Source: Marispirochaeta sp.
Lineage (GTDB): Bacteria; Spirochaetota; Spirochaetia; JC444; Marispirochaetaceae
Reading direction: 5' to 3'
Length of the DNA: 64,000 bases
Assembly: GCA_963676835.2 (NCBI GenBank)
Contig: CAXXFF010000001.1
Location: 448,001 to 512,000, forward strand
Shown here: piece after piece, positions 1,339 through 16,464 of the stretch
How positions within the stretch are numbered: the first letter of the stretch is position 1
Layout of the letters: every line of letters begins with the position of its first letter
Position numbers and translations under genes: made by a program
The notes under the pieces: model-generated
What the model was told of the DNA's origin: nothing
Databases searched by the model: none
Seen by the model: the letters and a program-made list of their open reading frames with translations, nothing else

Positions 1339-1410
1339 GCCAGAATAGCTCAGGGGTAGAGCAACGCTCTCGTAAAGCGTAGGTCGTGAGTTCAAATCTC
1401 ACTTCTGGCT
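1339..1410 (+). tRNA. tRNA-Thr (anticodon CGT)
   Basis: Cloverleaf: acceptor GCCAGAA/TTCTGGC, D arm GCTC..GAGC, anticodon stem ACGCT/AGCGT with loop CTCGTAA, T loop GTTCAAATC; CCA not encoded. Confidence 0.96.
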
Positions 1411-1589: not shown

Positions 1590-2981
1590 TTAGACTGAAT
1601 CAAACATGCCCGTTTGCATAGCCAGATCTATATTATTCGCATTGCTCATAAGAATTTTCAACCACTCTGGTTCGAATTCAGATTCATTATCCTGCAGGTT
1701 AAGATCCATTGGAATCTGACAAATTTGTATTCTTATTGTACTGTTACTTCTTTCATCTACGACCTTTAATGTACGGAACTGCGAAGATGTTATCTTCGTT
1801 CCAGGATAGAGTAATAAAACCTTGTCTGCTCCACGTCGAACTGCATAGCTGATCATCTGGTATATATCCGCCTGTGAAATACCATACTTTTCTTCTCTAT
1901 TGCTTAGATCAATCTGTTTATATTTTGCATCCCCGATTATTACACTTCCGCTATTTTTTTGCTTCAGGAGTAAGTCATTCTCATACTGAAAGAGATCTTC
2001 ATTATTCTCAACTACCAGATAACCTCTTTTCTTGACTTCCAAGGTCCAATCTGACGGCAATCTGCTGGCAAGATACCCTGCTGCGAAATTCTCAAACAAG
2101 CTGGAGGTTTGTATAAACACATGGTCTATTCCATATTCTCCCGAGGAGACATCCGCCATTCGGAAAGATAAGAACATTTTGCAATAATCGAGGATAGGTA
2201 TGTAGTCTTGTTGATAGGCATTAAGTCTCACCTTCAAACAGTCTCGGTAATTTACTCTTTGCTCTGTCACATCTTCCAAATGTGCGATAGTAGCAGATAA
2301 AATGCGTCTGTTTTCATAGAGATGAGTACGAGATATTAAAAGACTGCATACATATTTTACAATACGATTAAAAAGATTGTCTTCCTGGAAAAGTTCAAAG
2401 GTGCATGCAATCCTGTCATGACGCCCACTGGCTATATTCTTCCGGATTTGTTCGGAAAAATCGATTCTGCCTCTCACGGTACCGATATTCTCAGCAATTT
2501 CCTGATAAGAATTATATTGCCGTTGTGAGAGCAAGGCTAATGTACGATTTGCAAAGGTATTGATTAAGATCTCTGAAAAAATGGTGCTACATGCTTCGAT
2601 GCCACTGGAAACTGAAGCACTTTCCATCATCTTTAATCTTGTAGAAAAACTGAACATTCGGTCCAGATATCTTGCTGCAAATAGAACATCATTATTCTGA
2701 AAAATTTTAGGAAGAATAAGATATTGAGCACACCCGGTAGTTATTATTCCAATATAACCGCCCGGTTTAACTGTTACAGTACCATCTGCTTGCCAGTGAA
2801 ACTTAATTAGATTCTGTGCTAATGAATCATTATCTGATTCTTTTTTATAGTAACAATCATACAATATGCACGAGCTTCTCTCCCTCCAGACTTTTCTGCA
2901 GGATTCTTCCAGCTTGAGTGCTTCATCATGCTCCAGTGAATAGATTTGATGTTCAAATAATATTATTGAATTATTCGTCAT
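1590..2981 (-). CDS. mcrC: McrC-family restriction nuclease subunit
   Basis: VRGRIDF, DNLFNRIVK and PD-(D/E)xK-type ENDLLL...IIGDAKYK...ISQADIYQMISYA motifs; overlaps mcrB stop. Confidence 0.9.
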   Translation of the reverse strand: MTNNSIILFEHQIYSLEHDEALKLEESCRKVWRERSSCILYDCYYKKESDNDSLAQNLIKFHWQADGTVTVKPGGYIGIITTGCAQYLILPKIFQNNDVLFAARYLDRMFSFSTRLKMMESASVSSGIEACSTIFSEILINTFANRTLALLSQRQYNSYQEIAENIGTVRGRIDFSEQIRKNIASGRHDRIACTFELFQEDNLFNRIVKYVCSLLISRTHLYENRRILSATIAHLEDVTEQRVNYRDCLKVRLNAYQQDYIPILDYCKMFLSFRMADVSSGEYGIDHVFIQTSSLFENFAAGYLASRLPSDWTLEVKKRGYLVVENNEDLFQYENDLLLKQKNSGSVIIGDAKYKQIDLSNREEKYGISQADIYQMISYAVRRGADKVLLLYPGTKITSSQFRTLKVVDERSNSTIRIQICQIPMDLNLQDNESEFEPEWLKILMSNANNIDLAMQTGMFDSV

Positions 2982-5064
2982 GCTGCTTATAACGAATTAA
3001 ACCAAGTGTATTTTCTTCAATCTTGCCTTCCGGGATATTCAGCCCCTGAAATACATTTTTAATTTTAGAACTATCACCAAAAAAGTATTCATCAAGAAGA
3101 GGCAAAACCTGGCCATTCAGTATTACACCTAAATCTTCAATGTCCTTTCCTATGAAGTAGGAATGGCCAATTTGGTGGTCTTTATCCTTTTCGTGAACAA
3201 TATTCTTGTTCATTGCCTCAAGTAAATCCCTCAATGTATCATCTTCTATCAAGGAGTAGTCAGGATACATCTGTTTAAAAACAAAACGTCGTCTTAATGC
3301 AACATCCAGAGTAGTTATACTTTTATCTGCAGTATTCATAGTTCCTATAACATATAGGTTTTCGGGCACACCGAAAGTTCTATCCCCTTCAGCAGAACCT
3401 GGAAGGCTGACTGTCAAGCCCCTAAGCTTTCCTTCATCATCCGGCCTTAAGCGTTTATCCGGTTCCAGAAGTGTTATTAATTCCCCGAATATTCTTGGTA
3501 TGTTCCCCCGGTTTATTTCATCAATTATAAGAACATAATTTCGCCGTTCTTTCTGTTCCGCAGGAATTTCAACTAAGGCCTTGATATTTTCCCACCGCAG
3601 ATTTTTTGTAGCCAGTTCATAAAGGGTTTGCTGTGAAAATATTTTATCCTGAATTTGTTCAACAGGAATACTTACATCTGTGAGAAGCCATTCGACCGGT
3701 CGGTAATGGTTATATCGGATATCAGTATCATCTTTATATTCATAGGGGCCATTCACCCTGCCTATTGCTCGTACTTTCAGGTTTCCCTGGGATATCATAA
3801 CCAAATCGCCATCTTTCAAGTCATGAATAAAACGCCAGCAAACCTTTGCCGCGAAATCGGGGGAATCTTCAACAATGCCCTCCGCGACTAACATATCCTT
3901 TATTTTCTTCTGTCCATGCTCGTCTTTGGTCTCATCATAAAGGGCTGTAAAATTAACGCCTTTAGCAAAGCCATGGGCTATATAGTTTTCGTTGATACAG
4001 TAATCATAAATCTCCTGATCTGCTTTCAGCTGGCTGTTGCCCAGGGACATTTTATAAATCCGCTCGTTCCCAGTCAGTGCAGTGCCTTTTTTGCGGTCCC
4101 CATACTCTGAACGGGCGGCCTCAGCAATCTTTTTAAATATACCGTCCTTCATTTCATAGCTAATACTATTGGTACTATCGTTCAATACCGGTCGAATACC
4201 CTGAAGGAAATCCTCATAAGAAAATGAGGGATGAAACGTAAGGAATGCAATTCGCTGATCATCGACAAGGCGATAGAAGGTTTTTTCAAGCAGAGCACGA
4301 TCTGCTTTTGGGTCGTTTAATATTGCTGAAATTTCTTCATGTACAACTTTATCGGTCCTGCTGATAATCTCCAGGGCCTTATTTATAGTAGTATAAGTTT
4401 TCCCCGTGCCGGGAGGTCCGTACAAAATGGTATTAAGAGGCAAATTATCACTGTTTTCTTCTTCGAATTCGCCTGCTTTTATCTTAAGCCACTCGGCCCA
4501 GAGTCGACGGGAGAAATCTATCATCCCCTCCCCTGGTTTTCTTCTATTCAGTAATGCCAAGTAATACGAGCTGATTTTCTTTACATTCGGCTTTTCTCCG
4601 CAAAGCCCAGCCAATGCAGTATGCAGGAAGATTGCGCATACCGCCGGGTTATTTCTATTTTGATAGTGAAATGCTATTTTCCATTTAATGGAAGGCCCCA
4701 AATCTATAGCGTCAATTTTCTCCAATTCACCTTTTTGGGCATGCTCTATGACATCAATAATCCTTGAGTGAATATTTGTATAAGCCTCATCCGGGGTTGT
4801 TCCGTCTTTTGAGTACCAACCATATCCATCGTTATATGAGCGTTTATTATTTGATTCTTTCTCGTCACTGTTTTTTCGTGAATAGATTCCAAACTTAAAC
4901 GAAGAGCCACCACCTATGCCACCATATTTAGCCAGACCGAATTCCAGCCAGTAGGTAAATGTGGTTTTATCTCCGGCTTTGGTGTATTCCGACAGCTTCA
5001 TTTTTTTTACTTTTTCGGGGGGCCAAACTTCAAGAAACTCATCCCACGTATCTTTTTCCGGCAT
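2971..5064 (-). CDS. mcrB: McrB-family AAA+ GTPase restriction subunit
   Basis: Walker A GPPGTGKT, FHPSFSYEDF, Walker B IIDEINRGN, McrB signature MNTAD, ALRRRF. Confidence 0.92.
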   Translation of the reverse strand: MPEKDTWDEFLEVWPPEKVKKMKLSEYTKAGDKTTFTYWLEFGLAKYGGIGGGSSFKFGIYSRKNSDEKESNNKRSYNDGYGWYSKDGTTPDEAYTNIHSRIIDVIEHAQKGELEKIDAIDLGPSIKWKIAFHYQNRNNPAVCAIFLHTALAGLCGEKPNVKKISSYYLALLNRRKPGEGMIDFSRRLWAEWLKIKAGEFEEENSDNLPLNTILYGPPGTGKTYTTINKALEIISRTDKVVHEEISAILNDPKADRALLEKTFYRLVDDQRIAFLTFHPSFSYEDFLQGIRPVLNDSTNSISYEMKDGIFKKIAEAARSEYGDRKKGTALTGNERIYKMSLGNSQLKADQEIYDYCINENYIAHGFAKGVNFTALYDETKDEHGQKKIKDMLVAEGIVEDSPDFAAKVCWRFIHDLKDGDLVMISQGNLKVRAIGRVNGPYEYKDDTDIRYNHYRPVEWLLTDVSIPVEQIQDKIFSQQTLYELATKNLRWENIKALVEIPAEQKERRNYVLIIDEINRGNIPRIFGELITLLEPDKRLRPDDEGKLRGLTVSLPGSAEGDRTFGVPENLYVIGTMNTADKSITTLDVALRRRFVFKQMYPDYSLIEDDTLRDLLEAMNKNIVHEKDKDHQIGHSYFIGKDIEDLGVILNGQVLPLLDEYFFGDSSKIKNVFQGLNIPEGKIEENTLGLIRYKQHDE

Positions 5065-5203: not shown

Positions 5204-5596
5204 TTAAAGAAATTTCAAAACTATAGGGGCAACTGTCCCAAAAAGCGATACAATCAGGGCGGCTGAAGCAAACCATGTGGCAATACGTGAAGATTTCCGT
5301 GCTTCCTGTAATTCAGTGTATTCAATCAATCGAAACTTATCTTCTACCGAGATAGAAAGCATATCTCTGTTAGATTCGTGTTCCAGACGCCGATTGATTT
5401 CACCTATACCCCAGGTTCTTAAGAATGCAGCTTCAAGATGAAGAAATTTTCCAATACTTATCTGAGCTCTCAATTTTTTGTCATTAATAGAATCAGGCTC
5501 TATTTCAAACTCTTCTCTCAATTCTGTATACGTAAAGGACTCTTTCTCATCTGCCCATTTGAGTATACGAATGTATATATCATCTGTTTCTCTCAT
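5204..5596 (-). CDS. Hypothetical protein with C-terminal transmembrane helix
   Basis: 130 aa with hydrophobic C-terminus (WFASAALIVSLFGTVAPIVLKFL); extended -10 TGGTATAAT 6 nt upstream of the ATG. Confidence 0.7.
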   Translation of the reverse strand: MRETDDIYIRILKWADEKESFTYTELREEFEIEPDSINDKKLRAQISIGKFLHLEAAFLRTWGIGEINRRLEHESNRDMLSISVEDKFRLIEYTELQEARKSSRIATWFASAALIVSLFGTVAPIVLKFL

Positions 5597-5680: not shown

Positions 5681-7354
5681 TTACACATTCGTCAAAACCG
5701 ACTGCAGCAACTTCTCCCGAGTCTCCTCCGAATGATCAATCTTCTCAATCATACTGTCGCAATAACCCATAAGCTCATTGATTTTGGTGACGATTCGTTT
5801 CTGTTCTTTCAGAGGTGGGAACGGAACTTGAATTGACTTGATCAGTCTCAATGTAAGGTGTTTTACACCTAAACCTCTTACATATTTGCCATCATAAGTT
5901 ATTGTCGAGAACTCTTCATCAAATATGTATTTAATATATTCCGTGACGACAAATTCTTTCTGAAAATTTATTACTCCAATACTTTCTACTAAATATAAAT
6001 CATACAGTGATTCTATAATTGCAGTTCGACCTATACTACCACTTTTTGTGACCAAGAGACTTTTCTCTTGAAGCATGAATTTTTGCTTCTGGCTTTCATA
6101 TTCGTCGATAGTGACATAATTACAATTTTCTAAATTTATCCTGTTAGCATATACATCTTTAGCAGATATACACGGCACACCTGATCCAACATAGTTCGGA
6201 GCATAATGCACTCCGTCTGTAACTGAAAGTGCAATTTTATCGATACTGGTCCACACCCACCCCGCCGGCAGCTCATAAGGAATCTCCTCACGCCTTATCT
6301 CCGGCAAATCCTTCTGCCTCTTAATCTTCCCTTCCCCAATCAACTTCTCTTTCTCAGCCTGAATCTTTTTCAACAATTCACTGGCTGGTTGATCATTCGG
6401 ATCCTGGGGAACAAGTTTCCCCATCATAGCTAACTGCAGAATGGCTTTTTTCAGTTCTTCCACATTCTCTTTTACCGAGTAGATGTGTGAAAAGTTTCGG
6501 GTAATGAAGTTGAAGGAGTTTTGGAAGGATTCTTTATCGGGGCTTTCCAGCAGCAGATGCAAAGCTGCAGTATTTACTTGCAGACGCTTTTCTTCCTGAG
6601 CCTTTTTCAGGCGCTCCATTTCATCGCAGCGGGCCATGAGTTCATTGATTTTGGTGACGATTCGTTTTTGTTCGTTTAGGGGGGGGAGAGGTATATGAAA
6701 GTTATTTAAACTTTCTAAATTGATTTTCGGCATTTTGACTCTGTTCTCGGCTACAATTACTTGTTTGAGAAAAACATCTGACAGCATCAACCTTAGCATA
6801 AAATCTAAATCAATAAAGCATCTAATAGGATACATGTCTGCACTACATAATCCATCATATGGCGCAATTACTATTTTATTTAATGATGGACGGATTTTTG
6901 AGTAAATAATCTGACTCTGATAAAATCGATTATTTGGACCTGTTACTCCCGATTCTAATACAGTTCTACTTGAAATCAATTTACCAGTATCTTTTTCAAT
7001 AATATCAGGTGCGATTTGTTTTTCATCCGGATAGTCCACAGGGTTAACTAATTCTGATTGAACCTCATTTACATTATTAAATTTAATCCATTCCCAATTC
7101 ATCGGGATCTCATATGGAATATCCTCCGGCTTAAGTGCCGATAAGGTCTTTTGCTTTCTAATCTTCCCTTCCGAAATCAGCTTCTCTTTCTCTGCCACTA
7201 CCTCTTTCAACAACTCACTGGCTGGTTGATCATTAACATCTTGAGGAACCAGTTTTCCCATCATTGCTAATTTTAAAATCAGACTTCTTAGTTCTTTAAT
7301 CCCATTAGGCGAATCAAAAGCCGTTTCAAAATGCTTCTCAAGCAACTCCATCAA
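5681..7354 (-). CDS. hsdS: Type I restriction-modification specificity subunit
   Basis: Two conserved repeats (LAMMGKLVPQD.NDQPASELL...IPYE.P..W; PPL.EQKRIVTKINELM) flanking two variable TRDs; ATGA overlap with hsdM. Confidence 0.93.
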   Translation of the reverse strand: MMELLEKHFETAFDSPNGIKELRSLILKLAMMGKLVPQDVNDQPASELLKEVVAEKEKLISEGKIRKQKTLSALKPEDIPYEIPMNWEWIKFNNVNEVQSELVNPVDYPDEKQIAPDIIEKDTGKLISSRTVLESGVTGPNNRFYQSQIIYSKIRPSLNKIVIAPYDGLCSADMYPIRCFIDLDFMLRLMLSDVFLKQVIVAENRVKMPKINLESLNNFHIPLPPLNEQKRIVTKINELMARCDEMERLKKAQEEKRLQVNTAALHLLLESPDKESFQNSFNFITRNFSHIYSVKENVEELKKAILQLAMMGKLVPQDPNDQPASELLKKIQAEKEKLIGEGKIKRQKDLPEIRREEIPYELPAGWVWTSIDKIALSVTDGVHYAPNYVGSGVPCISAKDVYANRINLENCNYVTIDEYESQKQKFMLQEKSLLVTKSGSIGRTAIIESLYDLYLVESIGVINFQKEFVVTEYIKYIFDEEFSTITYDGKYVRGLGVKHLTLRLIKSIQVPFPPLKEQKRIVTKINELMGYCDSMIEKIDHSEETREKLLQSVLTNV

Positions 7355-8799
7355 TGATTCCCCAAAGCCTGAACCAGCTCATTCTTCAACTCAGCCTGAA
7401 TACTCTTCAACTCTTCAGAAATTTTCAGAAAATCAGCCAGTAACTCTTCAGGATCACCATGATCAACCTCGACCTGATGGGGATTCTTGTAATCCAGGTT
7501 ATAGTTATTCTCAGCAATATCTTTAGCACTAACCTTCCAGGCATATTCCGTAACCTTCCGCTTCTTCCACCAGCTCTTTTCCAGATTAAATTCCTGAATC
7601 GTAAGAGGCTTACTCTTGGAATATGACTTATACCCATTCGGATAAGGATGCTCAAAAAACCAGACATCCTTGGTCGGCCCGCCCTTGGTAAAGAACAGAA
7701 GATTCGTGTTGATACCCGTATAGGGATTAAAAACCCCCTTCGGCAGCCGGACAATAGTATGCAGGTTAAACTCTTCGAGCAGCTCCCGCTTAAGAGTAGT
7801 CTTAACCCCTTCCCCGAAAAGAAAGCCGTCAGGCAGAACAATAGCTCCCCGACCGGTATTGTGCTTTAACAGATGCATAATCAGAGCCATGAACAGATCG
7901 GCGGTTTCCCTGGTCTGATACTTCTTCAGGGTATTCTTCTCTATGCCGTCCTCTTCCATCCCCCCGAAAGGAGGATTAGTAATAATAATATCTACCCGGT
8001 CTTTGGGACCGTAATCCTTCAAAGGTCGGCTCAGGGTATTATCGTGCCGGATGTTTTTGGGCAGATCGATTCCGTGGAGCATCAAGTTAGTAATGGCCAG
8101 CATATGAGGTAAGGGCTTCTTCTCAACACCATGAATGGCTTTCTGAACCACCTTCCGGTCCTCGGAAGTCTTTTCCTGCTTCTTCAAATGTTCAATGGCG
8201 TTCACCAGAAAGCCGCCGGTACCACAGGCAGGGTCAAGAATGGATTCACCGATTTGCGGGTCTATTATATCAACAATAAACTGGGTTACCGCCCGGGGAG
8301 TATAGAACTCCCCTGCATTACCGGCAGACTGGAGATCGGAAAGGATTTTTTCATAGATATCATTAAAGGTATGCCTGTCTCCGGAAGTGTTAAAATCAAC
8401 ATCATCTTCAATAGAATTGATAACCTGGCGCAGCAGTGTTCCGGATTTCATATAGTTATAGGCATCTTCAAAAACACCGCCCACAATCTTCCCATGATCC
8501 GAAACACCAGCCTGGTTTGAGAGCTTTTTTAATGCGGGAAAAAGATCATTGTTCACAAAATAAATCAGTTCATCACCGGTCATACCTTCAGGATCTTTTG
8601 CCCAGGAGGACCAGCGAAAGCGGGATGCAACAGGAGATTTATACCCCGGATCCATGAGGATCCACTCCTTTTCCCGGTCGTCAAATATCTTCAGAAAGAT
8701 CAGCCACACCATCTGACTGATACGCTGGGCATCCCCATCGACACCAACATCTTTCCGCATAATATCCTGAATTGTCTTGATCAGCGTTGCAAGTGACAT
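7351..8799 (-). CDS. hsdM: Type I restriction-modification N6-adenine methyltransferase
   Basis: GEFYTPR, DPACGTGGF and NPPF motifs. Confidence 0.96.
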   Translation of the reverse strand: MSLATLIKTIQDIMRKDVGVDGDAQRISQMVWLIFLKIFDDREKEWILMDPGYKSPVASRFRWSSWAKDPEGMTGDELIYFVNNDLFPALKKLSNQAGVSDHGKIVGGVFEDAYNYMKSGTLLRQVINSIEDDVDFNTSGDRHTFNDIYEKILSDLQSAGNAGEFYTPRAVTQFIVDIIDPQIGESILDPACGTGGFLVNAIEHLKKQEKTSEDRKVVQKAIHGVEKKPLPHMLAITNLMLHGIDLPKNIRHDNTLSRPLKDYGPKDRVDIIITNPPFGGMEEDGIEKNTLKKYQTRETADLFMALIMHLLKHNTGRGAIVLPDGFLFGEGVKTTLKRELLEEFNLHTIVRLPKGVFNPYTGINTNLLFFTKGGPTKDVWFFEHPYPNGYKSYSKSKPLTIQEFNLEKSWWKKRKVTEYAWKVSAKDIAENNYNLDYKNPHQVEVDHGDPEELLADFLKISEELKSIQAELKNELVQALGNH

Positions 8800-8815
8800 C
8801 TAATAATTCTCCTGA

Positions 8816-11191
8816 TTATGCACCGTACAGGGCTTCTTCCATTTCCTGAAGCGCCTCATGATACCGTTCTATTGAACCGAAGTGTTTAATTATCTCCATA
8901 GGAGTTCCGAACTCCGGAAAAGGAGCAATAGTTAAAATCTGAGGTTCTTCAATGGGTTCAATACCCTCATCTGCGTATTTATCCAGCAAAGCAAATAAAA
9001 CAGCTTTGGCCTGCTCCCCGTATCGGGTGAAGTAATCCCGCTTTTTAACATTCTCCGCCCGCTCTTTCCGGGTAAGCGGAGGCTGGTCCCAGGCAACATG
9101 ACAGATAAGATCAAAGGCATCAAAGTCTTTGCCTATTTCCTCTTTTAGAGCGTCCAGAAATACACCCTGCTCTTCCAGTTCGGTAATAACCGCTTTCTTC
9201 CGTTCAGCACCCTTCCATTTGGAAAGGAAATCATCCAGGCTGGTGTATTCCTTGGTAATAGACTTCCTGGTGTAATCCTTCAGGGATTCGGTGATAAGCT
9301 TACCTTCAGCATCAAAATACTGTACCCGCTCTGCCACTACCGTAACAGGAACATCTTTTACATAGAACTTCTTCACACCGCCAGGATTATCATTCCCGCC
9401 GTCGCCGTCATGGTCCCAGTCGTCATTCCCATCATTAGAAGGTCCAGTCTCCCCTGCTATTCCATCTCCCGGTATCTCTTCATCGGGGTCATCCGGAATC
9501 ACAGGGCCGTCCGGATTCGGCTTGTATATTGAAACAGGATCACCGTCAAAATCAGGATCCGCGAAAAGCTCGGTCGCCTTCTTGAAATCCATAATGGTAA
9601 AGAAGAACTTACCGTAATCCTCGTTGATTCTGGTACCCCGCCCAATTATCTGCTTAAACTCCGTCATGGACTGTATACGCTGGTCCAGCACAATAAGTTT
9701 ACAGGTTTGGGCATCGACACCAGTGCTCATAAGCTTGGAAGTGGTGGCAATAACCGGATAGCGGGACTCGGGAAAGATGAAGTTATCAAGCTCCACCTTA
9801 CCCTCTTCATTATCACCGGTAATGCGCATGACATACTTGGAGTTTTCCCTGACCAGATCAGGGTTCTCATTCACTATGGCCTGACGCATTCTTTCAGCAT
9901 GATCGATGTTATCGCAGAAGATAATAGTCTTGCTGAACCGGTCGGTCTGGGTAAGGAACTCGGTTACTTTCTTTGCGACAAGCACCGTGCGTTCCTCAAG
10001 AACCAGGGTTCTGTCAAAATCCTTCTGATTGTAGATCCGGTCCTCAATCTCGTTCCCGTATTTGTCGGTCATTCCCTTCTCAGGGCGCCATCCTTCCAGG
10101 TCCTTATCAAGATCAATACGTATTACCTTGTAAGGAGCCAGAAATCCATCATTTATCCCGTCACGCAGAGAATAGGTGTAAATCGGGTCCCCGAAGTAAT
10201 CGATGTTGGAAACATCCTTGGTTTCTTTGGGGGTAGCCGTTAAACCAATCTGAGTTGCGCTGGAAAAGTATTTCAGGATCTCTTTCCAGTTTGAATCCTC
10301 CGCTGCACTGCCCCGATGACATTCGTCAACGACAATCAGGTCAAAGAAGTCGGGGGAAAACTGTTTATATATATTCTTTTCCTCTTCCGTGCCGGTTACA
10401 GCCTGATAGAGGGAAAGGTAGATTTCATAGGATTTATTAATCTGGCGCTTCTTGATCTTGGTCATGGCAGCACCAAAGGGCTTGAAATCGTTGGTCATGG
10501 TCTGATCAACCAAAATATTTCGGTCTGCCAGAAAAAGGATGCGTTTCTTTGCCCTGGATTTCCATAAACGCCAGATAATCTGAAAAGCGGTGAAGGTTTT
10601 ACCGGTACCAGTAGCCATAACAAGCAGAATCCGGTCCTGCCCGTTGGCAATGGCTTCAATAGTCTTGTTGATTGCTAAAAACTGGTAGTACCTGGGCTTT
10701 TTGTCACTGCCGTCGCTGTAGTAGTCCTGGGTAATAATACCCTCTTTTCCATCATCATAGCCCTTATCCAGGCGGATCAGGGACCATAATTCTTCCGGAT
10801 TTGGGAACTCATCCATGGAGAGTTCCTTCTCAATAATTCCGTCAGCTGCAAGCTTGTTATGAAAGAGAAAACCATCACCATTGGAGCTGAAAACAAAGGG
10901 AACCTGCAGCATTTCGGCATAGCCAAGTCCTTGCTGCATACCGTCCCCGATGGAGTGCTTGTTATCCTTGGCTTCGATAATGGCAATGGGGATATTGGGT
11001 TTATAGAACAGGACATAATCGGCGCGTTTGCTCGTGCCCCTGGAATGAAGCTGACCGCGAACAATAATACGACCCTTTGTAAGAGGGTATTCTTCAAGAA
11101 CCTGGGTTTCTATGTCCCACCCGGCGGATACCAGAGCCGGATTAATGAACTTTGTGCAGATATCCCGTTCTGATAACTTTGATTTATCCAT
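8816..11191 (-). CDS. hsdR: Type I restriction endonuclease subunit R (EcoAI/EcoEI-like)
   Basis: ADYVL...IIEAK nuclease motif, [20 protein letters not shown]; EcoEI-like C-terminus. Confidence 0.95.
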
Positions 11192-11367
11192 ATTTTGCCA
11201 GGAACTCCGGTTACTTGTGATGCGTTCATGTCAGTATACGGGAGGGGATAAAGGTTGGCAAGGAAAGAAAATGAGGTGGTTACCCCTATGCGATTTGATC
11301 AAAAGTGTATTTTGTTATAGAAAAGAATTGTTAAACAGAATGCAAATATAGTTTAAGAAGTAAATCT

Positions 11368-11643
11368 CTAGCTCTTATATAGGTCAGAATGAGTACCTAC
11401 CCTTTTTAACAAGATAAGATCATCTCTTTTCTCATAGACAATTACAATATCACCTTGAGCATGGCAATCCCAAATTTCTTTTGCATACCCTTTTAGTGGC
11501 TTGTTGATAAAATTATCTGGAAATGGAGGCCCCTTCCTTAATAAACCTACTGCCTCTTCAATATCTCGGATCCTGTTTTTATGTGATGCAAATTTTTTGA
11601 GATCAGCTTTAAATGTTCTTTGAGCCTTAACTTGCGGCATCAA
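11368..11643 (-). CDS. yafQ: YafQ-family (RelE superfamily) mRNA interferase toxin
   Basis: FKADLKK, PLKG...DCH..GD.VIVY...L.RVGTHSDL motif; 91 aa. Confidence 0.85.
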   Translation of the reverse strand: MMPQVKAQRTFKADLKKFASHKNRIRDIEEAVGLLRKGPPFPDNFINKPLKGYAKEIWDCHAQGDIVIVYEKRDDLILLKRVGTHSDLYKS

Positions 11644-12410
11644 TCAGAGCAAACTGCTGCGAATAGTTCGTCGATAGAATCGTATTCATCATCTAAATCA
11701 TCTGATTCTATTGCTGCATTAGTCTCATCGGTGGGAACTGCCTTTACCAACTTTTCAATTTTTCTGAATTCCACATCTCCAAGAATATCATGAATATAAT
11801 GTACCTCTGCTTCGTTGACTCCATTACAAGCCCACCTATTGATGAAATCAACCAACATTACTGAGGGGAAATCAAATTTTATTGCTTTCATATCATCATA
11901 TCCAACATTCTTTTTTCTTGGCCCCATTTTCAAATCTATAGTTCTATTAGCTAGGAACGAGAGATTTATCCTCATATCTTTAATAAACCTATACTCTGTA
12001 CTCCCTAAATGAGCACTAGAAGCAGATGATAAAAATGAGAGAGGTTCTTTATGCAAGTTTGAGGGGTGATGAAACCATTCATCGTATAAATCAAACTGAA
12101 TATCCACGAGACCAAACTGGACAATACTAAACATACCTATATGATAGTGACTACTGACAAATAAATCCTTTTCGTATGCTTCCATACCTTCACGAAGTAT
12201 AGTTTGGAATTCGTCATATTTCCCTTCACTAAAAAAAAGCAAACCTAGAGCAACATATTCTTTGGGATTTAAAATCTGTCTGCTTTTTATCTCAAGAAGC
12301 TTATGTATATACCGCTTTAAACTAAATTCATCCAGTTCAGTTTTGCCAGTATACTTGAGAACCTGCAATATTTCATCTGCTATTTCCACTGGTGAAGGCT
12401 GAAATGACAT
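11640..12410 (-). CDS. Hypothetical 256-aa protein, putative extended antitoxin with DinJ/RelB-like acidic C-terminal tail
   Basis: ATGA-coupled to yafQ; C-terminus PTDETNAAIE...YDSIDELFAAV; RBS AAGGAG. Confidence 0.7.
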   Translation of the reverse strand: MSFQPSPVEIADEILQVLKYTGKTELDEFSLKRYIHKLLEIKSRQILNPKEYVALGLLFFSEGKYDEFQTILREGMEAYEKDLFVSSHYHIGMFSIVQFGLVDIQFDLYDEWFHHPSNLHKEPLSFLSSASSAHLGSTEYRFIKDMRINLSFLANRTIDLKMGPRKKNVGYDDMKAIKFDFPSVMLVDFINRWACNGVNEAEVHYIHDILGDVEFRKIEKLVKAVPTDETNAAIESDDLDDEYDSIDELFAAVCSD

Positions 12411-12606
12411 GACCTTTGCTCCTTAAAGTCCTTTACCAACATCGTCTAACTTCAAATTTAATATTATAGTACACCATATTCCAATAATATGATGTTCTTT
12501 TTTTATTACAATCAGGATGTGCATCCATTTATTTCAGACTAATTCTCTGCCATGAGATCCTATCTTATTATCGTCATCTTGCCTACCAGATTATAGACTC
12601 CGAATT

Positions 12607-12789
12607 TGTAGGAAGAAATATGCAAGAAAAACCCCTTATCCTCCCCTTAACGGGCTTTATCTTCCATGACAAAAGCATAGACACCAAATAGCTAAAGTGT
12701 TAATATAGATAAAGATAGATTGCATGTGGCAAGAGTGAAAAGCCCACTCGTAAAGCGTAGGTCGTGAGTTCAAATCTCACTTCTGGCTG
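12607..12789 (+). repeat. att junction copy 1: ~140-bp arm plus 42-bp tRNA 3' fragment
   Basis: Homologous along its length to 13962-14140; 12747-12788 is identical to tRNA 1369-1410. Confidence 0.9.
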
Positions 12790-12868
12790 TATAATTAATC
12801 CATGCAATAATTTGAACCATACCAATTAAGCCAGTTCTTCAATCGTGTTCTGTTGCCCAATAGTTATC

Positions 12869-12910
12869 TTGAAAAGACCCTCTGACGGCTATATACTTTG
12901 AATATATAGC
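12869..12910 (+). promoter_or_regulatory. vapBC promoter with palindromic operator
   Basis: TTGAAA-17 nt-TATACT; inverted repeat GCTATATA-N7-TATATAGC overlaps the -10. Confidence 0.75.
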
Positions 12911-12926
12911 ACAAACGGAGGCTTCT

Positions 12927-13163
12927 ATGAATATAGGCTCAGTTTTTGAAAACAACCGCACACAAGCCGTCCGCCTGCCTGCAGACACCAGGTTTCCAAA
13001 GGAAATTAAAAAGGTCTCAGTTCGTGTTGTAGGCTTGTCCCGCATCATAGAACCCCTTGAGAACAGCTGGGACAGCTTCTTTAACACCGTAGATGAGGGT
13101 GTAAGCGAAGATTTCATGACCGAACGGGCATCACAGGTTCAGGCGGAACGGGAACAGTTTTAA
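12927..13163 (+). CDS. vapB: VapB (AbrB/SpoVT-type) antitoxin
   Basis: [14 protein letters not shown]...WDSFF...[11 protein letters not shown], close to enterobacterial VapB/MvpA. Confidence 0.93.
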
Positions 13164-13164
13164 C

Positions 13165-13569
13165 ATGCTGAAATTCATGCTCGATACCAACATTGTTATC
13201 TATGTAATAAAACAACGGCCCAAAGAGTTACTTGAAACTTTTAATACATACACTGGATATATGTGTGTCAGTTCCATAACTCTGGCGTAATTGATTCACG
13301 GCGTTGAAAAAAGTGCTTATCCGGAAAAAAACCGGAGAAATGTAGAAGACTTTATCTCCCGCCTTGAAGTGTTAGCCTATGACGAAGCAGCTGCCGGCCA
13401 TTATGGTGAAATACGGGCTAACCTTGAGAGTAAAGGAACTCCTGTTGGGGTAAATGACCTGCATATTGCGGGGCACGCCAGGAGTCAGGGATTAATTCTT
13501 GTCACTAACAATATAAAAGAGTTTGAACGCGTCGAAGGCCTGCGTGTAATCGACTGGACTGATCGCTGA
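13165..13569 (+). pseudogene. vapC: VapC PIN-domain toxin with in-frame nonsense codon
   Basis: ATG at 13165 gives MLKFMLDTNIVIY...SSITLA, then TAA at 13288-13290, then the same frame continues LIHGVEKS...GVNDLHIAGHARS...VTNN. Confidence 0.88.
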
Positions 13570-13683
13570 TTTCGTAAAAAACAAGTTAAAAGATTAGTCG
13601 CCGATTTTCACTGGCATATTGCTGTAGATTTAGTGAAGAATATGCGTGAATTGAACAGAGTAAAAAGAGAATGCGATATTCAC

Positions 13684-13863
13684 TTACTGCCGGGTAAGTT
13701 TATCTTTGGGAAAATCATTAGTGATCTTATAAACTTTTCCACCATACGTAAAAGTGTTGTTCCCGTGTCTTACGTCCGGACTATTAATTGCCTTTGATGC
13801 ATCGCTTTCACGGTCAGCCATGGCATTACGTACAGGCTCAGCCATCGGTGCTTTCATAGACAT
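13684..13863 (-). CDS. Small hypothetical protein (59 aa, below ORF-track cutoff)
   Basis: AGGGAG RBS, then MSMKAPMAEPVRNAMADRESDASKAINSPDVRHGNNTFTYGGKVYKITNDFPKDKLTRQ*. Confidence 0.55.
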   Translation of the reverse strand: MSMKAPMAEPVRNAMADRESDASKAINSPDVRHGNNTFTYGGKVYKITNDFPKDKLTRQ

Positions 13864-13961
13864 ACTCCCTTATTAGATACTTCAATTTATACCATTAAAC
13901 AGTAAACTTCGCAAGTTCAGGCTATAATTGTGTATTATACATCAATAATACTCATATAAAC

Positions 13962-14140
13962 TGTAAGAAGAAATATGCAAGCCCCCCCCCTTACTCTCCC
14001 CTAAACCGGCTTTTTCTGCCACAAAACCTATACAGCAAATTGCTAAAGTGTTACTAGAGAAAAAGATAGGGTGCATTTAATAAGAGTGAAAAGCCCTCTC
14101 GTAAACCCCAGGTCGTGAGTTCAAATCTTACTTCTGGCTG
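13962..14140 (+). repeat. att junction copy 2: arm plus degenerate tRNA 3' fragment
   Basis: 14096-14139 matches tRNA 1367-1410 with 4 mismatches; upstream arm homologous to 12607-12746. Confidence 0.88.
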
Positions 14141-15547: not shown

Positions 15548-15638
15548 CAGACAGTAGTATACCTGATATCAAACCGTCACCCATTGTCAGATGTTCCGTC
15601 CATAGAGTCAGGTAAACTCCCTATCTCAATTCTCAACA

Positions 15639-15667
15639 TTGACAATTATCGCAATTTGCTATATATT
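15639..15667 (+). promoter_or_regulatory. sigma70 promoter of higBA
   Basis: TTGACA-17 nt-TATATT. Confidence 0.7.
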
Positions 15668-15703
15668 TTTTCTATTAACATTGTTCTATCAGGATTTGTA
15701 AAA

Positions 15704-16030
15704 GTGCATGTAGTTGCCGAAAGTACGCTGAGGGAGTTTGGAAAAGCTCATCCGGATGCTGTTGATTCTCTCCATAGCTGGTATTCGGCTATGGATAACA
15801 ACAATTTCAGAAGCTTTGCGGAACTTAAGCAGGTGTTCCCATCGGCGGACAAAGATAAAGACGGATTTGTATTTACCTATTTCGACATAAAAGGGAATAC
15901 ATATCGAATAAGCGCAATAATCAGATATAATAAGGGGCGCGTGTTCATACACGATGTATGTACCCACGCTGAATACAGTAAGACCTGGGCAAATCTGAAA
16001 TGGAAAACCAGGAACTTCCGAAGGGCATAA
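15704..16030 (+). CDS. higB: HigB-family toxin
   Basis: GTG start downstream of promoter; LREF...HPDA...W...ELKQVFPSAD...FDIKGNTYR...THAEY. Confidence 0.88.
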   Translation: MHVVAESTLREFGKAHPDAVDSLHSWYSAMDNNNFRSFAELKQVFPSADKDKDGFVFTYFDIKGNTYRISAIIRYNKGRVFIHDVCTHAEYSKTWANLKWKTRNFRRA

Positions 16031-16032
16031 TC

Positions 16033-16464
16033 ATGAGTAATCAAACGGCCAAAATCCCCTCTTTAGGGAACATCCCCACTGCTTTTATGAAAAAGTTAAG
16101 CTCCCTGATATTCATACCTGAAACACGGGAGGAGTATGATCTACTGTCACAACGGGCAGCACAATGGGATCTTGAGATCAACGAGGATGCCGAGCATCCA
16201 CTGTATGCTCTCAATGAGATATTGGTTGGTATTCTTAGACTGTCAAAAGACCGATTTCTGCCTTTTGAAGGAGAAAAACAAACGCCGGAGAAAGTCCTTC
16301 AGTTTCTTATGGATCAACATGGGTTAAAGCAGGGGGATCTTAAAGAAATTATGCCCCAGAGCGTAGTATCCGAGATATTTCATGGAAAACGTAAACTAAA
16401 CAGAGGTCAAATTGAAAAACTGGCCAAAAAATTCGAAATATCGCCGGCAACTTTTTTCCAGTAA
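16033..16464 (+). CDS. higA: HigA antitoxin (C-terminal HTH)
   Basis: LQFLMDQHGLKQGDL...QSVVSEIFHGKRKLN...LAKKF; toxin-first order; alternative start 16000. Confidence 0.88.
   Translation: MSNQTAKIPSLGNIPTAFMKKLSSLIFIPETREEYDLLSQRAAQWDLEINEDAEHPLYALNEILVGILRLSKDRFLPFEGEKQTPEKVLQFLMDQHGLKQGDLKEIMPQSVVSEIFHGKRKLNRGQIEKLAKKFEISPATFFQ

Follow-up and report, generated by a model that had tools for sequence, protein, structure and literature searches.

A putative modular antitoxin with a TPR-like core and a DinJ-type tail, paired with a YafQ-family toxin in a tRNA-Thr island of Marispirochaeta

Antitoxins of the DinJ/RelB type carry an N-terminal RHH domain and a C-terminal toxin-binding tail within a total of about 90 aa. 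In DinJ-YafQ, as described in the accessible passages of PMC4652777, the antitoxin gene comes first and overlaps that of the toxin; the diversity of YafQ is treated in PMC7584586, available in part. Other described systems depart from this plan. Panacea (SocA/DUF4065) reuses one globular domain with unrelated toxins by means of exchangeable neutralising modules, and its authors, in the sections available of PMC10440598 and PMC8832971, speak of "linear neutralisation" by these modules and hypothesise that the shared domain is a sensor. The class 8 hicBA of Gerdes (bioRxiv 10.1101/2023.12.08.570793 and PMC10865869, partial texts) encodes a large antitoxin without DNA-binding domain: HicB of 331-376 aa, with its own N-terminal part, an OB-fold-like middle domain and a C-terminal HicB fold, followed in hicBA order by a HicA of about 95 aa with two extra C-terminal helices. 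How toxin-antitoxin (TA) systems are triggered, and what role antitoxins without a DNA-binding domain play, are questions left by the Panacea authors and by Gerdes in the portions of these sources covered here.

We analyzed a stretch of 64,000 nucleotides of a Marispirochaeta genome (hereafter the window), in which a sequence-only reading had pointed to two ORFs at 11368..12410. Both were found there, on the minus strand. The first, P0001 (11640..12410), encodes 256 aa, matches phrog_11524 (E 7.8e-12) and is a predicted antitoxin by a tail HMM and co-folding. The second (11368..11640; 90 aa counted from the ATG) encodes a YafQ-family toxin, which matches Pfam YafQ_toxin PF15738 (E 3e-20, 72.8 bits, cut-off 30); it lies above the cut-off of TIGR02385 (54.5 for 27.9) and below that of TIGR00053 (53.8 for 87.25). 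Among its best-matching solved structures are H. pylori HP0894 and HP0892, together with E. coli YafQ. A ribosome-binding site, AAGGAG (12419..12424, minus strand), is read 8 nt ahead of the antitoxin ATG. The junction reads GAT-TGA-TG-CCG, so the genes overlap by 1 nt (TGATG), or by 4 nt (TTGA) should the toxin start at the TTG at 11643; this is not the ATGA coupling first proposed. Judged by this junction, the two genes overlap and are translationally coupled. The trait recurs across genomes as expected of a type II TA operon, a coupled small gene being present in 10 of 12 other loci. A chance fusion or frameshift origin of P0001 was discarded, since the same architecture is found in P0003 (42% over 253 aa) and others. 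A promoter scan gave a chance level (9 versus 7.1) and an operator search gave nothing convincing. A perfect TATAAT lies at 12463-12468 (minus strand), 53 nt 5' of the antitoxin start; a GTACTAT stretch is common, by eye, to the three YafQ-type loci (the window, L126 and L110), and an imperfect 13-bp inverted repeat adjoins the GTACTAT/TATAAT region.

The link of P0001 to DinJ lies in its last residues. Residues 224-256 (11643..11741, minus strand) form an acidic tail, with 12 D/E and one K/R among residues 223-256, and have the C-terminal P..ET..AI...Y.S..EL pattern of DinJ. From 18 yafQ loci in 121 genomes we extracted 13 independent YafQ partners and built an HMM on the C-terminal 45 residues of each; the window's own locus and one with an implausible upstream ORF were left out, and three yielded no partner. 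The P0001 tail scores 13.2 bits on this HMM. Among 3,999 ORF C-termini of the genome (890 without a score) this value is reached by one, P0001 itself, and by none of 300 shuffles, which bears out the likeness to a DinJ/RelB neutralising segment claimed from the letters. Ten of 34 family members score 3.9-16.2 on the HMM, values reached by at most 5 of 300 shuffles; the tails of P0004 and P0007 and of the RelB/ParD-looking P0008, P0009, P0013 and P0017 are not significant on it, and the curated NCBIfam models do not detect the DinJ-type tail of P0001. The partner of a second yafQ of the same genome (L172, G000 C1:562916-563433) is 73 aa long; its tail is of this type too, whereas its short N-terminus is, by eye, unlike RHH. 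L176 and L177 hold similar pairs, and cross-talk between the L172 pair and that of the window is possible. At L171, a 94-aa YafQ partner with a DinJ-type tail and an acidic N-terminus unlike RHH appears to be another atypical antitoxin.

Ahead of the tail, P0001 has a core of about 220 residues in the place of an RHH domain. Modelled alone with alignment A1, the protein reaches a pLDDT of 90.2 and a pTM of 0.82, with helices at 10-113, strands at 124-170, helices at 171-223 and a tail of low confidence; from the single sequence the pLDDT was 45, which is useless. In this model, residues 1-113 (12072..12410, minus strand) make a TPR-like helical subdomain, the candidate trigger-binding part, and residues 114-223 (11742..12071, minus strand) a long beta hairpin and two strands with a conserved GP turn, then helices. 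The four beta strands at 124-170 correct the earlier description of the region ahead of the tail as largely helical. Matches in fold searches are TPR proteins covering the first half of the core alone (about residues 5-125), with Z of at most 9.8, below the value of about 13 advised for helical repeats. Where TPR proteins have 34-aa motifs in tandem, the core shows one TPR-like motif, at about residues 48-83, and Pfam TPR matches stay below cut-off; Foldseek against PDB and BFVD gave nothing at E<=0.001, and an atlas look-up gave only TPR/DUF6707 look-alikes at low recognition. P0001 has no Pfam match above cut-off and no NCBIfam match. PADLOC 2.0, which has no model for the core, returned no match at E<=0.01 for P0001, P0003, P0011 and P0015 and one marginal match for P0012. 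The absence of an RHH N-terminus, noticed in the sequence-only reading, agrees with hhalign against 8 DinJ N-termini (probability at most 0.4%). Spacing relative to DinJ had suggested a complete internal DinJ (RHH and tail) at 174-256; hhalign finds nothing of the kind, and this idea was rejected because members of every tail type share residues 174-220 as part of their core. Two further candidates were set aside: a COMMD-like reading (weak rows, TM about 0.14, absent from the VIA top 50, literature search empty) and a Pfam coronavirus nsp1 match (E 0.0011, below cut-off, one of 30 members), taken as chance.

Homologues of the core are few. A phmmer search against 1.84 billion representatives gave 40 matches including the query, of which 30 make up alignment A1 after removal of 6 long repeat proteins, 3 fragments and P0011. 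Residues 1 to about 220 are common to all A1 members at 17-40% identity, and the sequence beyond differs. The PHROGs v4 family phrog_11524, for which no function is given, is matched by 19 of 20 full-length core proteins tested. No column of the core is invariant; the best kept residues (P7, F29, Y52, A54, W112, F113, N118, G163 and P164) are structural, which argues against an enzyme. Full-length matches were found in 2 of 400 genomes of the phylum, 1 of 400 of the class, and 3 of 114 and 3 of 99 genomes in two further sets (the sets overlap), and in none of 5 genomes of the same genus and one of the same family. Further genome searches gave no new core member (0/11 and 0/11), and pattern scans gave true homologues at 3 of 63 loci from metagenomes, but at 0 of 54 from GTDB and 0 of 2 from viruses. 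When P0015 and P0041 served as queries, viral scans were empty; by tblastn P0001 had no match in plasmids or phages and P0041 none in phages. Word-based searches returned P0001 alone, P0001 with P0041 (a Leptospira protein), and four proteins with A5. A description of the core was not found in the open-access papers searched. The P0001 family is real, very probably one of modular antitoxins, and as a variant of type II TA apparently undescribed.

Co-folding points to direct binding of the two proteins. P0001 with its own toxin scored 0.85 in three runs, the best of three controls 0.00; contacts agree to at least 96% and the partner pLDDT is at least 90. This mark is reached by 116 of 157 solved pairs and by 2 of 215 mismatched pairs. 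The predicted interface includes the tail and core residues 135-138 and 169-195. Among the best contact pairs are core V187, I190 and N191 with toxin residues 42-47, core helix 181-194 being predicted to pack on toxin loop 41-50. The part of the prediction that concerns the tail may be memory, as DinJ-YafQ complexes are already solved. Residues 1-113 are not named in the interface, and with this tool such an absence is no evidence against contact. With the tail test and the linkage to yafQ, the co-fold makes P0001 very probably an atypical antitoxin of YafQ, and all three support the sequence-only proposal that a large domain not of the DNA-binding kind carries a neutralising tail.

The modular nature of the family emerges from the homologue loci, twelve of which were read besides the window. 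A DinJ-type tail goes with YafQ in 3 of 3 loci, window included; in L126 the YafQ gene is directly next, at -1 nt (Pfam E 1e-26), and so it is in L110, at +4 nt (Pfam E 1e-20). L110 lies beside integrase fragments. Nine other members have a longer tail that resembles HicB: hhalign with a profile built on 27 domains of that family gives 68.8% (E 4.5e-5). Taken singly these tails are weak on the HicB HMM, where two of nine (P0011 and L151) outscore every control; the tails of L213 and L214 reach -1.0 and 1.3 on it and 33.2 and 7.0 on the HicB-like tail HMM (0 and 6 of 3,999 controls). The HicB-type tail goes with a HicA-like gene in two of three loci, of which one looks broken. L214 has an overlapping 95-aa HicA-like gene (PF07927, E 1.3e-5, 25.6 bits, just under the cut-off of 27); the next ORF at L213 is 48% identical to it over 42 aa and looks truncated, its N-terminus seemingly absent. 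The third type, a short tail, goes with a family of small genes in 6 of 7 loci: L002, L003, L150, L091 and the close kin L162 and L163 have a gene for 72-83 aa located 0-13 nt downstream of the core gene, and the seventh, L164, is broken with no partner ORF seen. The phage protein family phrog_13380 (PHROGs v4, unannotated) is matched by three of four such partners tested. They show no profile likeness to YafQ, and atlas rows at 0.89-0.90 provide a lead, and only a lead, to a RelE-like nature. On Leptospira plasmids, for which three of six records were read, ORFs absent from the gene tables were seen directly after the core gene at L162 (7000-7251) and L163 (8704-8955); they score 30-33 bits on the small partner family, and these small unannotated genes are candidate new toxins.

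On a 39-row tree of the core, five tail labels (two of them by eye) cannot be placed with fewer than 6 changes, when 4 would be the lowest possible number, with the deep branches left open, so that repeated swapping of tails on the core seems likely from the sequences. The sequence-only reading had suggested looking for variable N-terminal domains on one tail; modularity does exist, but in the reverse sense, the core being constant and the tail and toxin varying.

Compared with the described systems, P0001 shares with DinJ the YafQ-family partner, the order and overlap of the genes and the predicted direct binding, as far as the available part of PMC4652777 goes. It differs by its core, which adds predicted toxin contacts and, standing in place of RHH, gives no evident autorepression, and by its length, 256 aa. 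With Panacea, as presented in the accessible parts of PMC10440598 and PMC8832971, it shares the reuse of one globular domain with unrelated toxins and exchangeable neutralising modules; a conserved GP motif is present in both. Unlike it, the core is about twice as long, starts with TPR-like helices and defines a rare family. None of 30 core members matches Panacea PF13274 and hhalign against 19 Panacea domains gave at most 1.3%; in the fold comparison the C-terminal half was queried only within the whole chain and the match lists were filled by TPR matches. By eye, class 8 matches P0011, P0012 and P0015 in the tail and L214 in its HicA, in the 12 rows available from PMC10865869 (Table S1). In the same 12 rows, again by eye, the N-terminal 250 aa of class 8 lack the core motifs DEF.L, Y.AL, WF....N and GP, and the passages covered hold no YafQ version of class 8.

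An 11.3-kb island holds the pair as its last cargo; it lies between a tRNA-Thr(CGT) gene (1339..1410, plus strand) and a 42-bp exact repeat of the 3' part of this tRNA (12747..12788, plus strand), an att-like right border after which, past 12788, related contigs diverge. G+C is 0.409 in the island and 0.484 in the genome. The remaining cargo, all on the minus strand, consists of mcrB and mcrC homologues (1590..5064; PF10117, PF07728) and a type I R-M system, hsdR, hsdM and hsdS (5681..11191), directly 3' of yafQ; the R-M and McrBC neighbours already noticed lie in the same tRNA-Thr island.

As a whole, the locus is best explained by a type II TA system whose antitoxin is a scaffold with an exchangeable neutralising part and whose trigger comes from phages, a reading to which we give about an even chance. 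With the two proteins made together, the acidic tail would, very probably on the strength of the models, wrap YafQ in the manner of the DinJ C-terminus, and helix 181-194 of the core would clamp the toxin loop beside the active site, keeping the toxin off the ribosome. The core would also have a job independent of the toxin: it is kept with unrelated toxin folds (YafQ, HicA), without a DNA-binding domain or invariant catalytic residues. Most plausibly, we infer, this job is to control the release of the toxin when a trigger binds. At somewhat less than an even chance, a trigger, most likely a phage protein, may bind the free TPR-like surface of the core, which would loosen the grip or expose the antitoxin to degradation; freed YafQ would then cut mRNA in the ribosome and stop the infected cell, a second line of defence behind the restriction systems encoded next to it. 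That the core is a sensor for phage defence, argued from context and analogy, stands just short of even. The neighbours (R-M and McrBC here, a SIR2-like gene at L150, AbiEii at L213) speak for a phage trigger, although islands collect TA genes irrespective of function. The mobile settings of the family, on Leptospira plasmids rich in TA genes and among PHROGs, also count for the reading as a whole. CapRel reportedly couples a TA "warhead" to a phage-protein-binding module and is a precedent for phage sensing. The TAC systems HigBAC and CmdTAC, in the part available of bioRxiv 10.1101/2024.02.24.581848, have the same kind of coupling and provide a model for the trigger step. P0001 differs from CapRel and TAC in that it is not fused to the toxin and no sequence likeness was found; neither does the SecB-like third gene of TAC (SecB-like chaperone, ChAD element) stand beside the pair, as the stretch from the antitoxin start to the att repeat holds no ORF of at least 70 aa, and the gene after the toxin is hsdR.

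More tentatively, phrog_11524 as a whole might be an undescribed phage-sensing receptor, a TPR-like/beta scaffold with a swappable C-terminal module for each toxin warhead, in the manner of a Panacea-like hub. If so, it would plug a DinJ tail to YafQ, a class-8-type HicB to HicA and a short tail to phrog_13380 as a minimal RelE-fold toxin; it would be a second hub of this kind, with a different fold and without transcriptional control, from which new sensor-toxin pairs could be made by tail exchange. Two unannotated phage protein families, phrog_11524 and phrog_13380, gain a candidate function. As the parts are naturally separate in this family, where a single constant scaffold is combined with three or more tail types and two or more toxin folds, the sensor hypothesis is directly testable.

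The strongest competitor, though an unlikely one, is an addiction module without phage sensing, where the pair prevents the loss of an integrase-less island or plasmid and the core only folds, stabilises or oligomerises the antitoxin or sets its turnover, and adds toxin-binding surface. The core indeed touches the toxin in the co-fold model. Members of the family adjoin ParA on Leptospira plasmids rich in TA genes and others are in tRNA-linked elements; the ORFs listed for the window's island include no integrase. However, ordinary YafQ partners of 60-108 aa suffice in the 13 loci examined, a core devoted to toxin binding would not be expected to persist with HicA, which has a different fold, and its best-conserved residues are mostly in 1-123 and the GP turn, outside the predicted interface. 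The phage-triggered reading is preferred to it. An integrase-like gene elsewhere in the genome (G000 C1:102317-103504), 68% identical to the tRNA-Thr ones of two relatives, might move the island in trans; at the same tRNA, 3 of 4 relatives examined carry other elements that start, by eye, with integrase-like genes.

It is quite improbable that the core is an independent effector or regulator of mobile elements, to which TA parts were repeatedly fused and made it addictive or co-regulated. The repeated tail changes on the tree, the association of the family with phages (phrog_11524) and the L151 member, found without toxin neighbour between kinase-like and glycosyltransferase-like genes, are in line with such a history; against it, the coupled small downstream gene is kept in most of the other loci and no invariant residue suggests an enzyme.

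The state of the toxin leads to the last alternative. The motifs DCH, GTHSDL and NKPL quoted for it, like the tail and TPR-like segment quoted for P0001, are all present as described. Of the catalytic set His50, His63, Asp67, His87 and Phe91 (E. coli numbering, mapped by motif) it has H60, D64, H84 and Y88, and also retains R80; K47 stands in the His50 column, the only one of 16 aligned YafQ without His there, and W57 where most YafQ have R. This K47 is within the toxin loop that the core is predicted to touch. Least probable is an attenuated or decaying copy, in which the YafQ would have lost catalytic power (K47, W57) and the pair would be a leftover or titrate related toxins as a decoy: H50A is non-toxic in E. 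coli, restoring growth in vivo on overexpression, but His63 can partly replace His50 as general base in vitro (both from the accessible part of PMC4652777), the other residues are kept, the relatives at L126 and L110 have the canonical His, and no listed indel falls within either frame in a diverged copy. This copy is seen on contigs of runs X3 and X4, whose tables are identical and may stem from a single data set, and of X6, which comes from a different study. The contigs span 10900 to about 12780 with 102-103 substitutions (about 94.5% identity to the window); all their listed indels are at 11325-11327 or 12504-12658.

Other elements were observed in and next to the island. In the McrB homologue (2971-5064, minus strand), PD-T4-1 matches the N-terminal region (E 8.5e-18) and PDC-S02 an insert in the AAA domain. 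Between hsdS and mcrB, a 130-aa ORF (5204-5596, minus strand) has a C-terminal hydrophobic helix and no family match. Right of the island border, a second small island (12789-14139) contains a vapBC-like pair (12927-13569) and is closed by the tRNA-Thr repeat in a third, degenerate copy (91%, 14096-14139), which indicates that insertions were stacked at tRNA-Thr. It is followed by a higBA-like pair at 15584-16464.
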